From: Candidatus Marinacidobacterium sp.
GTDB taxonomy: Bacteria > Acidobacteriota > Vicinamibacteria > Marinacidobacterales > Marinacidobacteraceae
DNA: 64,000 bases
Assembly (NCBI GenBank): GCA_965204755.1
Contig: OZ242011.1
Coordinates: 2,176,001-2,240,000 of the forward strand
Reading direction: 5' to 3'
In this document: positions 12,717 to 56,154 of the stretch, one piece after another
Layout: each line of letters begins with the position of its first letter
How positions within the stretch are numbered: the first letter of the stretch is position 1
The notes under the pieces: model-generated
Told to the model about the DNA's origin: nothing
Databases searched by the model: none
What the model saw: only the letters and a program-made list of their open reading frames with translations
Translations under genes and position numbers: made by a program

Positions 12717-12720
12717 CCGG

Positions 12721-12766
12721 CAGCCCGTGGAGAAAGTCCGGGGAGCGCCCGTCAGCGCGGAGCGCC
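12721..12766 (+). repeat. Degenerate dispersed repeat, copy A (MITE-like)
   Basis: 46 bp matching 37933-37978 with 5 mismatches. Confidence 0.6.
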
Positions 12767-12783: not shown

Positions 12784-14094
12784 ATGCTCACCGACCGGTA
12801 TGTCCGCCCCGAGATGGGGGCGCTCTGGACCGACGAGGCGCTGTTCTCCTCCTGGATGGAGGTCGAAGTGGCCGCCGCCGAGGCGATGGCGGCGGAGGGG
12901 ATCGTCCCGGAAACCGCCGCCGCCCGGATTCGGGAACGGGCCGGCTTCGACCTCGAGCGCATCCGGGAGATCGAGGCGGTCGTCCACCACGATGTCGTGG
13001 CCTTCACCCAGGCGATGGCGGAGCGGGTCGGCGAAGAGGGCCGCTACCTCCACTACGGGCTCACCAGTTCCGATGTGGTGGACACCGCGCTCGCGGTCCG
13101 GCTGACCCGGGCGGCGGACCTGGTGCTCCGGCGGGTGGAGGGCCTGCGCGAAGTCCTCCTCCGCCGCGCCGAAGAGCACCGGCGGACGGTGATGGTGGGG
13201 CGCACCCACGGCGTCCACGCCGAGCCCATGACCTTCGGCATGAAGATGCTCCTGTGGTGGGCGGAGATGGGCCGGAACCGGCGGCGGCTGCGCGCGGCCC
13301 GGAGCGCGGCGGCGGTCGGGAAACTGAGCGGCGCGGTGGGCACCTTCGCCCACCTGCCGCCGTCGGTGGAAGCCCGGGTGTGCGCGGCGCTGGGGCTGGC
13401 GCCGGCGCCGATCTCGACCCAGGTCGTCCAGCGCGACCGCCACGCCGAACTCGCCGCCGCGCTCGCCATCACCGCCGGCACGCTGGAGAAGATCGCCACC
13501 GAAGTCCGCAACCTCCAGCGCACCGAGATCCGGGAGGTCGAGGAGCCCTTCGGGCGGGGCCAGAAGGGCTCTTCGGCGATGCCCCACAAGCGGAACCCGG
13601 TGGGCTGCGAGCAGGTCTGCGGCCTCGCCCGGGTGATCCGCGCCAATGTGGTTCCGGCGATCGAGAACATCGCGCTGTGGAACGAGCGGGACATCTCGCA
13701 TTCGTCGGCGGAGCGGATGACGATCCCGCAGAGTTTCCTGCTGCTCGACCACATCCTGCTGCGGACGACCGCGATCGTAGACGGGCTGCTGGTGTATCCC
13801 GAAGCGATGCGCGCGAACCTGGAGCGCATGAACGGGCTGGTGTTCAGCGGCGGCGCGCTGCTCGAACTGGCCGCCCGGGGGGTGTCCCGGGAGGAGGCCT
13901 ACCGGATGGTGCAGTCCTGCGCGATGCGGGTCTGGGAGCGGGGGACGCCGCTGCGGGAGGAGATGGGGCGGCGCGCGGGGATCACCGCGGTGCTCGGCGA
14001 GGCGGAACTGGACGCGGTCTTCGACCTCGACACCCATCTCCGCCGGGTGGACGAGGTGTACGAGCGCGTCCTCGGGGAGGAGGAGTCCCCGTGA
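12784..14094 (+). CDS. purB: Adenylosuccinate lyase
   Basis: HYGLTSSD, GRTHG, GSSAMPHKRNP. Confidence 0.97.
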   Translation: MLTDRYVRPEMGALWTDEALFSSWMEVEVAAAEAMAAEGIVPETAAARIRERAGFDLERIREIEAVVHHDVVAFTQAMAERVGEEGRYLHYGLTSSDVVDTALAVRLTRAADLVLRRVEGLREVLLRRAEEHRRTVMVGRTHGVHAEPMTFGMKMLLWWAEMGRNRRRLRAARSAAAVGKLSGAVGTFAHLPPSVEARVCAALGLAPAPISTQVVQRDRHAELAAALAITAGTLEKIATEVRNLQRTEIREVEEPFGRGQKGSSAMPHKRNPVGCEQVCGLARVIRANVVPAIENIALWNERDISHSSAERMTIPQSFLLLDHILLRTTAIVDGLLVYPEAMRANLERMNGLVFSGGALLELAARGVSREEAYRMVQSCAMRVWERGTPLREEMGRRAGITAVLGEAELDAVFDLDTHLRRVDEVYERVLGEEESP

Positions 14095-14360
14095 AGTACC
14101 GGGTCCGGGTGGAAGTGCGGCTCCGGCCCTCGATCTACGACCCGCAGGGCGAAGCGATCCGCCGGGCGCTGGCCGCCGGCGGCGCCTCCGGGGTGACTTC
14201 GGTGCGGCAGGGGAAACTCTTCGAACTCGAACTCGAGGCCGACTCCGCCGCCGCCGCCGAAGAGCAGGCCGCCGACCTCGCCCGCCGGGTCCTCGCCAAC
14301 CCGGTGCTCGAGGACTGCGCGGTTTCGTCGCCTACGATGCATCAGGTCCCCACCGCCTGA
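14091..14360 (+). CDS. purS: FGAM synthase subunit PurS
   Basis: DPQG, VRQGK, LANPVLE; GTG overlaps the purB stop. Confidence 0.93.
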   Translation: MKYRVRVEVRLRPSIYDPQGEAIRRALAAGGASGVTSVRQGKLFELELEADSAAAAEEQAADLARRVLANPVLEDCAVSSPTMHQVPTA

Positions 14361-14441
14361 CCGGTCGATTCTCCCCGGTGATCGCCGTTCCTGCCAAGAG
14401 GTTCCTTCATGCCTCGAAGGACGAGGTTGGCGGGGGGACTC
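14343..14441 (+). ncRNA. Candidate novel structured small RNA, copy 1
   Basis: Three blocks identical to copy 2, paired 5'/3' ends, two variable loops, TACGAT -10 box at 14333. Confidence 0.65.
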
Positions 14442-14528
14442 GCGGAGCGATTCCCGCCGCCGGCCCCCGGGCAGCGGCCCGCGGGGAACCGACGGGCGGG
14501 GGCCCTTCCGCGGGCGGGTACGATGCGG

Positions 14529-14635
14529 CAGGTCCCCACCGCCTGACCGGTTTGGATTTTTGCCGGTGATCGCCGTTCCTGCAGTGAGGTTTTCTTCCTA
14601 CTTGGTCTCCAAGGACGAGGTTGGCGGGGGGACTC
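14529..14635 (+). ncRNA. Candidate novel structured small RNA, copy 2
   Basis: Same scaffold as copy 1; TACGAT at 14519; inner stem preserved by G-U pairs. Confidence 0.65.
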
Positions 14636-14699
14636 CTTCGCGCTTCGCCGGCCGGCGCCGCTCTCGCCGGGCGCCGCGCCGCCGGCTCGCCGGCAACCG

Positions 14700-15410
14700 A
14701 TGAAGCCGCGCCGGATCGCGGTCCCGGTGTTCCCGGGCACCAACTGCGAGGAGGATGTGCTCCACGCGCTGCGGACCGTGACGCCCCACCGGGCGGAACT
14801 CGTCTGGCACCGGGAGGGCTCGCTCGCCGGGTTCGACGCCGCGGTCGTGCCCGGCGGTTTCGCCCACGGCGACTACCTGCGCGCCGGCGGGCTGGCCCGG
14901 TTCTCCCCGGTGACGGCCGCGCTCTCGGAGATGGCCGGGGCCGGGAGGCCGGTGCTGGGCATCTGCAACGGGTTCCAGATCCTCCAGGAGGCGGGGCTCC
15001 TGCCGGGAGCGATGCTGAAGAACCGCTCGCTCACCTATGTCTGCCGGGAGGTGTTCGTCCGGGTCGAGACGAGGGAGACCCCGCTGACCGCCGCCCTCGA
15101 AGTCGGCGAAGTGCTGCGGCTGCCGATCGGGCACGCCGAAGGGAACTTCCACCTGGACGACCGCGGGATCGCCGAACTCGAGGCCGAAGGACAAGTGGTG
15201 TTCCGCTACTGCCGGTCGGACGGGGCGCCCGACGAAGCGGCGGCGGAAGTGAATCCCAACGGCTCCCGGAACGCCGTCGCCGGCGTCCGGAACCGGGCCG
15301 GGAATGTGGCGGCGCTGATGCCCCACCCGGACCGGGCCTACGAAGCGGCGCTCGGCGGCGAGGACGGCGTCCGGGTGTTCGCCGGCCTGACCCGGTGGCT
15401 GGAGTCCTGA
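14700..15410 (+). CDS. purQ: FGAM synthase glutaminase subunit
   Basis: [35 protein letters not shown]. Confidence 0.96.
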
Positions 15411-17776
15411 TGGCGCCGGCGGCGGGCCGAGCCGGGCCACCGGCGGAAGGATCTGCCGGGCCACCGGCGAAAGGTCCAGCCGGGCCACCGGCGAACGGCG
15501 CTGTCGAGCGGCCCGTCGGGCCGGGCCAGGGGTTGGCCGATGCGCTCGCGGCGGGTCTCACCGAGTCCGATTTCCGGGAGATCGAGGCCCGCCTCGGGCG
15601 CGCGCCGAACGCCGCCGAACTCGGCATGTTCTCCGCCATGTGGTCGGAGCACTGCTCCTACCGGTCCTCCCGAAGGCATTTGGCGCGCTTCCCCACCGAG
15701 TCGCCCCGGGTCCTCGAAGGGCCGGGCGAGAACGCCGGCGCCGTCGAGATCGGCGACGGGCTGGCCGCGGTGTTCAAGGTGGAGTCGCACAACCATCCCA
15801 CCTTCATCGAGCCGTACCAGGGCGCGGCCACCGGCGTCGGCGGCATCCTGCGGGACATCTTCACCATGGGCGCCCGCCCGGTGGCGCTGATGAACTCGCT
15901 GCGCTTCGGCCCGCTCGCCGACCGGAACAACCGCCGGCTGTTCGCCGGGGCGGTCGCCGGCATCGCCAACTACGGGAACAGCATGGGCATCCCCACCGTG
16001 GGAGGGGAAGTGGGGTTCGAGGACTGCTACTCGCTGAACCCGCTGGTGAACGCCTTCGCGCTCGGTCTCGCGCCGGCGGACCGGTTGTTCCGCGCCCGGG
16101 CGGAGTCGCCGGGGCATCCGGTGTACTGCGTCGGCGCGAAGACCGGCCGCGACGGCATCCAGGGCGCGGCGATGGCTTCCGCGGCGTTCGACGACGAAGC
16201 GGAGGCCAAGCGCCCCACGGTGCAGGTCGGCGACCCGTTCCTGGAGAAACTCCTGTTGGAGGCCTGCCTCGAACTCATGCGGGGCGACGCGCTGGTCGCC
16301 GTCCAGGACATGGGCGCCGCCGGGCTGACCTGTTCCACCGCCGAAGTCGCCGCGCGGGGCGGGTGCGGCGTCCGGGTGGACCTCGACCGGGCGCCGCAGC
16401 GCGAAGCGGGGATGTCCGCCTACGAAATCCTCCTCTCGGAGTCGCAGGAGCGGATGCTGTTGGTGGTGCGGCGGGGGCGGGAGGGCGAGGTGGAGCGGGT
16501 CTTCGCCAAGTGGGACCTGGACGCGGCGGCGCTCGGCGAGATCACCGACGACGGACTGCTCCGGGTGACCCACCGGGGCCAGCCGGCGGCGCTCGCGCCC
16601 TGCCGGGCGCTGACCGAGGACGCTCCGCTGGAAGACCGGCCGATGGCCGCGCCGTCTTCGTGGCCCCCGGCGGAGGTGACCGCCGCCGACCTCGACGAGC
16701 CGCGCGACTGGAACGAGGCGGCCCTGCGGCTGGCGGCTTCCCCCGGGCTCGCCAGCCGGCGGTGGGTGTACGAGCAGTACGACCACATGGTGCGGAGCGA
16801 CACCGTGGCCCGCCCCGGCGCGGACGCCGGCGTGATCCGCATCAAGGGCTCGCGGCTGGGTGTAGCCATGTCGCTCGACGGCAACGGCCGCTACGCCGGC
16901 GCCGACCCCCGCCGGGGCGGGGCGCTGGCGGTGTCCGAGGCCTGCCGCAACCTGGCGGCGGTGGGGGCGGAACCCGTGGGGGCGACCAACTGCCTCAACT
17001 TCGGCAACCCGGAGAAGCCGGAGGTGATGTGGCAGTTCTCCGAGGCCATAGACGGCATGGGCGAGGCGCTGCGGGCGCTCGGCGCGCCCATCACCGGCGG
17101 CAATGTCAGTTTCTACAACGAGACCGACGACGCCGGAATCCTGCCGACCCCGGTCGTGGGCGTGGTGGGGGTGCTGCCCGATGTCCGGGCGTTGGTGCGC
17201 CAGCACTTCCGGGGACCGGGCGACGCGGCGTACCTGGCCGGAGGAGCGTCCGCCGGCGCTTCTTCCGGCGGCGCGTCGCCGACCGTCGCGCTCGGCGCGA
17301 GCGAGTACCTGAAGGTCATCCACGGCCGGACGGACGGTCGCCCCCCGGCCCCGGCGCTCGAGGCGGAGGCGCGCCTGGGCGCGTTCCTGCGCGCGGCCGC
17401 CGCCGCGGGGATCACCCGCTCGGCCAAGGACCTCTCCGAGGGCGGCCTGTTCCAGGCGGCGGTCGAGTCGGTCTTCGCCCCCGACGGTGCCCGCTGCGGC
17501 GCGTCCCTCTCGCTGGAAACCCCCGACCGGATCGAGGGCCCCCTCTTCGGCGAAGCCCCGGCCCGCGCGCTCGTCACGGCGGGGGTCGAGGACACGGCGG
17601 CCCTGGAGTCTCTGGCCGAGGAGCACGGAACCCCGCTGACCCGCCTCGGGACCACCGGGGGCGATGCGCTAAACGTCCGGGCGAACGGCGCCGCCGTGAT
17701 CCATCTGCCCACGCCCGACCTCTGGGACGCCTTCGGCATGGGCCTGGAACGCGAGATGTCGGGGACGGCGCCGTGA
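15410..17776 (+). CDS. purL: FGAM synthase synthetase subunit (small PurL)
   Basis: [39 protein letters not shown]; ATG overlaps the purQ stop. Confidence 0.97.
15431..15502 (+). repeat. 24-bp in-frame tandem repeat x3 in the purL N-terminus
   Basis: [24 protein letters not shown]. Confidence 0.85.
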
Positions 17777-17859: not shown

Positions 17860-19023
17860 ATGGACCCGGCCGTTGTCCGCACCGAACGTGCGTCGTCTTC
17901 CCCGCGTCGTCGCCCATCCTCCGCGCGACTCGATCGGCTGGCGGCTTCGGCGGCGTCAACGGCGCGTTCGACCGCGGTAGGCGCACTCCCGCCGCGCCGA
18001 GTTCATCCCGGTGCGGCAGCCGCGCCGGTCCTGCTTCCCGGAAGGCGGACGCGTCCGTCGGTTCGCCGCTCCGGCGGCGCCTCGCCTCGCCGCGCGCGGC
18101 CGTGGGTGCTGCCCGAGGACTGCCGGGATGCCCTCCCCGAACTTGCGGAGAACAGCGTCGCTCTGGTCTTGACCGATCCTCCCTACTTCACGGACCGAAT
18201 GGGCGCGGAATGGGACCTGCGCGCCCTCCGGTCGCGGGTGAAGAACGGGGTCGTCGGCGGCCTGCCGGTCGGTATGAAATTCGATCCGAAACAGGGCCGC
18301 GACCTCTACGAGTTCCTGCGGCCGATCGCGGAGGAGTGGCGGCGGGTCCTCAAGCCGGGCGGTTTCGCCCTCTGCTTCTCCCATCCCCGGCTCGCCCACC
18401 GCACGACCTCGGCGATAGAGGACGCCGGTTTCGAAATTCGGGACCTGCTCGCCTGGAAGCACGAGGGGCAGGCCAAGGCGTTCACGCAAGAGCACTTCGT
18501 TCGCCGCCGCGACCTCTCCGACCGAGAGAAGGCGCGCATCATCCGCTCGCTCGGCGGCCGCAAGACCCCGCAACTCAAGCCGCAGATAGAGATGATCGTC
18601 CTGGCGCAGGCGCCGCGCGCAGGGACTTTCGTGGACAACTGGATGGAGTACCGCGCCGGGCTGATCGATGTCTCCCGCCCGCTCCTCGATCCCGGACGCT
18701 TCCCCGGAACCCTGATCCCCTGCCCCAAACCCAAGGAGCGGTTCGGGCACATGACGGCCAAACCCGTCGCCTTGCTCCGCCACCTCATCCGCATCTTCTC
18801 CGCCCCGGGAACGAACTCGGTCGTCCTCGACCCCTTCGCCGGCTCCGGTTCGACCGGAGTGGCCGCCCGCCTGGAGAAACGCGGCTTCCTCGGCTTCGAG
18901 ATCGACGCGGCCATGGCGAAGACCGCGACAGAGCGGCTTGCGAAGGAAGCCGACGCGCGTCCACCGCGGCTTCGGGCTACGAGATCGCGAACTCCGCGGA
19001 TGAGGAGCCGTAGGCGTCCGTGA
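17860..19023 (+). CDS. Orphan beta-class N6A/N4C DNA methyltransferase
   Basis: TDPPY precedes KP...LDPFAGSGST; start uncertain (GTG 17773 or ATG 17860). Confidence 0.88.
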   Translation: MDPAVVRTERASSSPRRRPSSARLDRLAASAASTARSTAVGALPPRRVHPGAAAAPVLLPGRRTRPSVRRSGGASPRRARPWVLPEDCRDALPELAENSVALVLTDPPYFTDRMGAEWDLRALRSRVKNGVVGGLPVGMKFDPKQGRDLYEFLRPIAEEWRRVLKPGGFALCFSHPRLAHRTTSAIEDAGFEIRDLLAWKHEGQAKAFTQEHFVRRRDLSDREKARIIRSLGGRKTPQLKPQIEMIVLAQAPRAGTFVDNWMEYRAGLIDVSRPLLDPGRFPGTLIPCPKPKERFGHMTAKPVALLRHLIRIFSAPGTNSVVLDPFAGSGSTGVAARLEKRGFLGFEIDAAMAKTATERLAKEADARPPRLRATRSRTPRMRSRRRP

Positions 19024-37926: not shown

Positions 37927-38020
37927 GGTCAACAGCCTGTGGAGAAAGTCCGGGGAGGGCCTGTCGGCGCGAAGCGCCGACCGGGGAGGGGTGCGGGGAG
38001 GGGGTGGCGGGCTGTTGACC
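37927..38020. repeat. Degenerate dispersed repeat, copy B, bounded by inverted repeats
   Basis: GGTCAACAGCC...GGCTGTTGACC; shares a 46-bp core with 12721-12766. Confidence 0.55.
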
Positions 38021-56010: not shown

Positions 56011-56154
56011 GGGGCGCGGATTCTATCGGCCCGCGGGAAATGCGCCCCGCCGTCTTTTCCTCGACCGGAGGGCATGAAGTCCCCGTCCGTTCCACGCCCG
56101 CCGGGGCTCTTTCCCCGCGGGCGGTCGGCCTCGGCCGGCTCCTACAATAGTTTC

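Follow-up and report, generated by a model that had tools for sequence, protein, structure and literature searches.

What occupies the junction between purS and purQ in this genome, and does the pair of similar units lying there serve the purine genes on either side? Within the window, by which we mean the whole 64,000-nt stretch of DNA analysed here, purB (12784 to 14094; Pfam Lyase_1 and ADSL_C), purS (14094 to 14360; Pfam PurS, E 2.5e-25), purQ (14700 to 15410; Pfam GATase_5, E 1.4e-39) and purL (15404 to 17776, its true start lying within that stretch; Pfam AIRS, AIRS_C and FGAR-AT_linker) follow one another on the + strand. A gene for an N6/N4 DNA methylase (17950 to 19023, + strand; Pfam E 1e-30) comes directly after purL. 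A preliminary description, made from the letters alone, had placed a tandem pair of structured RNAs inside the pur operon, on the sense strand and directly before purQ-purL, and the gene order obtained from the Pfam matches agrees with that placement.

Anatomy of the two units

Two units lie between purS and purQ, with starts at 14333 and 14519 and an offset of 186 nt. Each opens with the same 8-nt leader and two variable nucleotides (nn), after which come three blocks (23, 20 and 25 nt) that match without a single difference and keep their order in both units, with the variable segments var1 and var2 between the blocks. The layout given in the preliminary description thus holds in full. Copy 1 (14333 to 14441, + strand) consists of the leader (14333-14340), nn (14341-14342), block 1 (14343-14365), var1 (14366-14374), block 2 (14375-14394), var2 (14395-14416) and block 3 (14417-14441). 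It is followed by spacer 1 (14442 to 14518, + strand), 77 nt at 85-88% G+C. Copy 2 (14519 to 14635, + strand) repeats this arrangement with its leader at 14519-14526, nn at 14527-14528, block 1 at 14529-14551, var1 at 14552-14562, block 2 at 14563-14582, var2 at 14583-14610 and block 3 at 14611-14635. Tail 2 (14636 to 14699, + strand), a G+C-rich segment of 64 nt with short internal repeats, then runs up to the purQ ATG.

The two copies are identical at 76 of the 76 aligned leader and block positions, while their loops and tails can barely be aligned; var1 measures 9 nt in copy 1 and 11 nt in copy 2, and var2 measures 22 and 28 nt. The paired-unit repeat is real and far beyond chance. Tandem Repeats Finder (TRF) did not call the 186-nt period. 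The scaffolds, within 14340-14640, have a G+C content of 50-68% and a T-rich + strand, with an AT skew down to -0.67, and the spacers that follow them reach 85-88% in a genome of 72% G+C. The loops are rich in U and C despite this genomic composition.

Copy 1 also reaches into the coding sequence of purS. It supplies the last seven codons of the gene, from an ATG at 14337, together with the TGA stop at 14358-14360 inside block 1; that the stop comes from copy 1 had been noticed beforehand. The PurS domain, by its Pfam match, has already ended 11 residues upstream of this TGA. The ATGs at 14337, 14523 and 14700 (purQ) all stand in the purS frame, each preceded by CG, with three TGA stops between them. 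Those at 14337 and 14523 each start a seven-codon mini-ORF closed by the TGA of block 1, and after the third TGA the purS frame is open into purQ. This shared frame of ATGs over 14337-14702 is probably chance or a relic. A protein-coding reading of the insert was rejected: we judge it non-coding because the 2- and 6-nt length differences between the copies place block 2 in different frames.

Origin of the insert

The purS/purQ junction of related genomes provides the reference for judging this arrangement. purQ was found in 40 of the 41 genomes searched, the window's own genome (G000) included; this count, like the BLAST comparison and the order-level genome set used below, includes one unpublished genome (G033), on which no conclusion depends. 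purS stands directly before purQ in all 29 relatives' loci fetched, and the two genes abut or overlap in each of them, as against a separation of about 340 nt in the window organism. From the last aligned PurS residue to the first aligned PurQ residue the distance is 15-72 nt in these 29 relatives and 367 nt in G000. Nine junctions were read, of which seven have a stop/start overlap (six TGATG, one ATGA) and two have spacers of 5-14 nt. The overlap is present in the same-genus genome G001, and in the alignment to that genome homology is lost at about 14332 and regained next to the purQ ATG.

Because the relatives, G001 among them, have abutting or overlapping purS and purQ genes, the segment from about 14333 to 14699 (approximately 370 nt) is, by this comparison, an insertion or expansion that arose after the lineage had parted from that of G001. 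By the same comparison, it destroyed a junction at which purS and purQ would have been translationally coupled. The PurS of G001 (locus L010) carries a low-complexity tail of about 20 Pro, Gly, Ala and Asp residues before its TGATG overlap; the PurS proteins of other relatives end soon after a conserved NPVLED motif. The nearest named relatives of the window's PurB, at 57-60% identity, come from Vicinamibacterales and other Acidobacteriota metagenome-assembled genomes, and the stretch is also present in sponge and marine metagenomes. The sequencing runs listed for it, 19 rows in 8 studies, include no RNA run.

Descent of the units from the ancestral junction itself was considered. The 5' half of copy 1 is colinear with the same-genus junction of purS tail and purQ start (score 17, reached by 9 of 1000 dinucleotide shuffles). 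No such alignment was obtained for copy 2, for G000's own junction or for five other relatives. As the single positive fails correction for 14 tests, we do not regard this origin as established.

Part of the insert has another affiliation. A BLAST search of the region against relatives returned many matches within G000 itself, and these led to a dispersed repeat of 222 nt. The repeat forms four strong hairpins (fold z -7.5 against shuffles), and an nhmmer profile built from 36 full copies matches the genome 73 times, 43 of them near full length. It also occurs in arrays, with four tandem units at C1:316611-317508 and two at C1:2849281-2849755; another copy lies at L039:150-371. Relatives of the repeat are present in 16 of the 27 other family genomes; at E<=1e-6 there is none in G001, although it belongs to the same genus. 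The first 118 nt or so often stand alone in relatives, which gives the repeat a modular look. Rfam gave no match for five of its copies.

The segment 14426 to 14488 (+ strand) matches model positions 111-175 of this profile, with E 2e-9 for the region and 2.2e-7 for the window. It is a 5'-truncated piece that retains the third hairpin and the beginning of the fourth, and truncation at this hairpin is also seen in other copies around the genome. The piece starts within block 3, takes in its final 16 nt, among them the 3' strand of the closing helix P1 described below, and runs 47 nt into spacer 1. On the profile match, the spacer part of the insert is thus kin to the dispersed repeat. Blocks 1 and 2 and both loops have no match to the profile. 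After copy 2 the match is weak (nhmmer E 0.6), and by eye only, a stretch of tail 2 resembles the right arm of the third hairpin. The flanks of the two units had been called unrelated; their downstream flanks both begin in or run into pieces of the 222-nt repeat, firmly after copy 1 and weakly after copy 2. Further partial repeats lie at 12717-12766 (+ strand, E 7e-9), between a metallo-beta-lactamase-fold gene and purB, at 37927-38007 (+ strand, E 5e-20) and at 56046-56129 (- strand, E 1e-7). The pur operon accordingly carries fragments of the repeat at two junctions.

Distribution, predicted fold and constraint

The scaffold itself behaves differently from the repeat that touches it. A covariance model built from the two units (R1) scores copy 2 at 128.5 bits and copy 1 at 115.2 bits in the 3.98-Mb, 71.7% G+C single-contig genome, with the next best match at 17 bits (E 4), and together with blastn-short it finds only the two adjacent scaffold copies there. 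This distribution, together with the lack of target-site duplications at the unit flanks, led us to reject a dispersed repeat of the MITE or REP kind as an identity for the scaffold; a plain scattered MITE had been named at the outset as an outcome that would refute the idea. Searches with R1 gave nothing below E 0.29 in 27 other family genomes and nothing at E<=0.1 in 54 other order genomes or in a 150-genome sample of the phylum. A 150-genome sample of the class returned two weak matches (31.8 and 29.5 bits, in 2 of the 150 genomes), which were dismissed because they lie inside Pfam-supported ORFs for a DctM transporter and a BNR/sortilin protein. The model had no match in 80 metagenome purQ loci and 80 genome purB loci, and these loci, from relatives 45-60% identical, yielded no intermediate forms. 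Conservation beyond this species is therefore absent from the family, order, class and phylum genomes searched.

Other searches agree with this restricted distribution. Rfam 15 gave no match at the gathering score over the 64-kb window, and at E<=10 on 14200-14800 (601 nt) it gave only a 15-bit lncRNA match on the minus strand in purS, which is irrelevant; the family thus stays as unrecognised as it was at first sight. Exact patterns, scanned in collections that may omit records of the window's own genome, had no hit for blocks 1 and 2 in genome contigs, for blocks 2 and 3 in metagenome or viral contigs, or for the two P1 strands in genome contigs. A looser pattern of junction and P2 gave at least 120 scattered matches across phyla. 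We attribute these to chance, given that 80 such loci scored no more than 32.5 bits with the covariance model though preselected for 22 matching bases; the best-scoring locus lies inside a 732-aa ORF. blastn with its 'distant' setting gave no match in plasmid and phage collections. The literature search turned up no account of a structured RNA at the purS-purQ junction, the text matches in PMC5737381 and PMC8632094 being to the word 'pursued' and not to purS, and none of repeats in sponge Acidobacteria.

For the two units together, RNAalifold predicts a shared fold in which a 12-bp closing helix, P1, encloses two hairpins, one of 5 bp bearing var1 and a longer, interrupted one bearing var2. 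The arms of P1 form an imperfect inverted repeat of 12-13 nt. Structural support for this fold is weak. Folding energies are not below those of dinucleotide shuffles on the + strand (z -1.22 for copy 1 and -1.26 for copy 2) or on the - strand (z -0.19 and -1.22), and the whole 406-nt region folds no better than shuffles (z -1.22). The covariation suggested at the outset does not show in the two sequences compared, with compensatory changes in 0 of 32 predicted pairs and one one-sided change. The var2 stem, said to persist despite sequence change, does appear in the shared fold; the change within it is one-sided (G-C to G-U) and hence not compensatory.

Copy 1 taken alone has a minimum-free-energy structure that differs from the shared one. 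Since the 3' strand of its P1 lies in the repeat piece, it has two alternative partners, block 1 or the repeat-derived segment 14446-14460 (13 of 15 pairs by hand). In the minimum-free-energy structure of the whole region, the repeat-derived hairpin forms and the P1 of copy 1 is displaced. This competition invites a comparison with tandem riboswitches or aptamers, such as those of the glycine and glutamine classes. In such a reading the units would be riboswitch-like or protein-binding aptamers in series that control purQ-purL, with P1 competing against the repeat-derived hairpin that shares its 3' strand. Their size, three-way-junction layout and invariant junction strands fit, as does their position as two like-folded units of about 100 nt immediately upstream of biosynthetic genes. 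In contrast to known tandem classes, they match no Rfam family, occur in one species only, show no covariation between the two copies and have no recognisable expression platform; relatives carry the same genes without the element. To our knowledge, no riboswitch class is confined to a single species. We consider control of purQ-purL by aptamers quite unlikely.

Models of the purQ start point in the same direction. The probability that the purQ ATG is unpaired is 0.69-0.79 across four folding contexts, and opening P1 in silico does not change this accessibility consistently. A switch driven by ribosomes or by P1 that exposes the purQ start was rejected on these grounds, the models giving no P1-responsive sequestration of the start site. 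There is no Shine-Dalgarno-like purine run before the purQ ATG.

Signals for separate expression of the units were sought with a crude consensus scan of 13800-15000, which gave no terminator-like sites and no + strand promoter-like sites. The scan called nothing at the TACGAT of the leader, which had been read as a -10-like element, and the idea of independently transcribed units finds no backing in it. The sole sigma-70-like site in this interval, 14368-14397, is on the minus strand (shuffles give 0.0). Its -10 element falls in the var1 loop of copy 1, which is A+T-rich, and the scan made no call at the corresponding position of copy 2. No tRNA or tmRNA was detected by ARAGORN in 13000-16000.

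These results bear on the possibility that the units are trans-acting small RNAs. Such RNAs would be cut from the operon transcript or transcribed on their own, with a protein binding the scaffold and the pyrimidine-rich loops pairing with targets. The combination of a fixed scaffold and variable loops, which holds between the copies and among strains, and the U/C-rich loops are what this reading would predict. The missing promoter and terminator speak against it, as does the lack of a partner gene nearby; when the genome was searched for complements of the four loops, the matches were 9-13-mers only and about as numerous as chance would give. In sibling small RNAs the seed is usually the conserved part. 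The present units show the opposite, a fixed body with varying loops, and exist in only two copies and one species. Tandem sibling small RNAs are nonetheless an established theme (review PMC4211561; PMC5362039). The present units resemble them in being neighbouring paralogues, each about 100 nt long and with loops rich in pyrimidines. Overall, a role as small RNAs acting in trans seems to us improbable.

Scaffolds with exchangeable guide segments offer a further comparison, with the bridge RNAs and omega RNAs of mobile elements and box C/D snoRNA-like RNAs as familiar examples. The likeness lies in the fixed scaffold with variable loop segments. The present units differ in having two copies only and no adjoining recombinase, transposase, nuclease or RNP gene; a mobile-element guide RNA of the bridge or omega type was rejected in view of the neighbours, which are purB, purS, purQ, purL and the DNA methylase gene. 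The proposed box D'/C' reading also fell away. Although a CUGA occurs, the last two positions of the C'-like heptamer GUGAUCG do not agree with the box C consensus, and we rejected a box C/D-like RNA for that reason. Only one base separates the hairpin from the GA.

Variation among strains offers a view of constraint that does not depend on the two copies. Contigs from four public runs, belonging to four studies, were compared over 14050-14950 (901 nt), and the unit pair is present in contigs of all four. Two contigs span the whole interval, with 15 and 30 differences; the contig of a third run covers 14196-14950 with 3 differences, and the fourth run contributes overlapping pieces. Variable sites in copy 1 are 14344 (unpaired, just before P1), 14371 (var1) and 14397 (var2); those in copy 2 are 14528 (nn), 14554 and 14557 (both var1) and an inserted base after 14599 (var2). 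Spacer 1 varies at 14454 and 14498, and tail 2 is the fastest-varying stretch, with 6 differences in one contig.

One site varies in 152 nt of blocks compared with six in 74 nt of loops and nn (Fisher p 0.0055), a contrast built on only seven variable sites in related strains, in which A+T-rich loops might mutate faster. No variable site falls in the 128 nt of paired positions (p 0.002). The block limits were taken from the comparison of paralogues and the counts from strains, which are separate data sets, and the pattern of fixed scaffold and free loops recognised between the copies is thus echoed among strains. Taken together, these comparisons speak with moderate weight for purifying selection on the scaffold sequence. 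Gene conversion could explain the identity of the copies, but not the lower variability of the blocks among strains.

The strain data are central to weighing a neutral origin, in which a repeat insertion and its local duplication were tolerated without serving any function, since purQ can still initiate independently. Several observations are compatible with such a relic: the insert is confined to one species in the genomes searched, it is built in part from a piece of a dispersed repeat with tandem arrays elsewhere, its fold is not better than shuffles and regulatory signals are lacking. However, the block positions have stayed identical while the loops and tails diverged almost past alignment, and the blocks vary less than the loops among strains as well; gene conversion would neither lower that variation nor be expected to skip the loops. 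We regard a neutral relic as a possibility worth keeping in mind, if a rather unlikely one.

Stems and junctions are alike identical between the copies, which fits a constraint on sequence, as at a protein-binding or DNA-level site, as well as a constraint on RNA structure. Paired binding or recombination sites in the DNA, with the P1 arms as their imperfect inverted ends of 12-13 bp, would account for an invariance that goes beyond pairing and for the inverted repeat itself. Recombination sites would sit poorly with the lack of a recombinase or transposase gene next to the units and of target-site duplications at their ends, and no contig in the four runs joins across or inverts a unit. We consider an element acting at the DNA level very improbable.

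Possible role in the pur operon

The reading we prefer, with a probability of roughly 0.4, is that the insert is a young intercistronic structured module, partly repeat-derived, which would be co-transcribed in the purB-purS-purQ-purL mRNA and act in cis. We infer this role at the purS/purQ junction from its position, its strand, the absence of signals of its own and the constraint on its scaffold. A fragment of the 222-nt repeat, along with additional sequence, would have entered the purS/purQ overlap, and the resulting unit would then have been duplicated in tandem, as members of the repeat family are elsewhere. The insert would thereby have come to consist of two units of about 186 nt, each with a three-way-junction scaffold of about 100 nt, if it folds in vivo as predicted, and a G+C-rich tail. 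Carried within the operon transcript, the module may uncouple the translation of purS from that of purQ. By analogy with REP/BIME-type repeats, it may perhaps also set the relative output, stability or processing of the two halves of the operon. The invariant scaffold would be the selected part, with the loops free to drift.

REP/BIME-type repeats occur within operons, the malE-malF junction of Escherichia coli being one case, and affect the relative stability or processing of operon parts. The insert would work most like a repeat of this type. Both are hairpin-rich and non-coding, both lie between two genes that are, here presumably, co-transcribed, and both belong at least in part to a genome-wide repeat that also forms tandem arrays. 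There are also differences: the scaffold of about 100 nt is not dispersed but present as two adjacent copies only, and the insert has replaced a stop/start overlap and not occupied a pre-existing spacer. The scaffold matches none of the repeat or RNA families tested.

Some of the evidence weighs against the cis-acting module. It is not obvious why a stabiliser between two cistrons should call for an invariant scaffold of 100 nt in two copies. In addition, the predicted fold is no better than that of shuffled sequences, none of the predicted pairs covaries between the two copies and the modelled accessibility of the purQ start is not consistently changed. A related scenario gives more weight to the invariance. 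The units may represent a newborn structured RNA of a single species, for which the repeat fragment supplied one strand of P1, the scaffold was duplicated and held invariant, and the loops drift or are re-tuned. Such an RNA might bind a protein or a ligand and serve as a regulatory or guide-like module; we think this scenario unlikely.

Our analysis adds to the preliminary description the lineage-specific insertion status of the locus, its kinship to a dispersed repeat and the constraint on its scaffold at strain level. In kind, the insert is an intercistronic structured element derived in part from a repeat, and what makes it unusual is a unique core that looks constrained. Whether selected or neutral, it is an orphan in one uncultured, sponge-associated species, which offers no handle for annotation elsewhere and no general lesson on purine regulation. 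A neutral insert would only illustrate how much non-coding DNA can be accommodated at the purS-purQ junction. If the scaffold is truly selected, it would provide a datable case, younger than the split from a same-genus relative, in which repeat-derived sequence in an essential operon has turned into a constrained, RNA-like module at a site of broken translational coupling. The locus would then bear on how new cis-elements or small RNAs originate.
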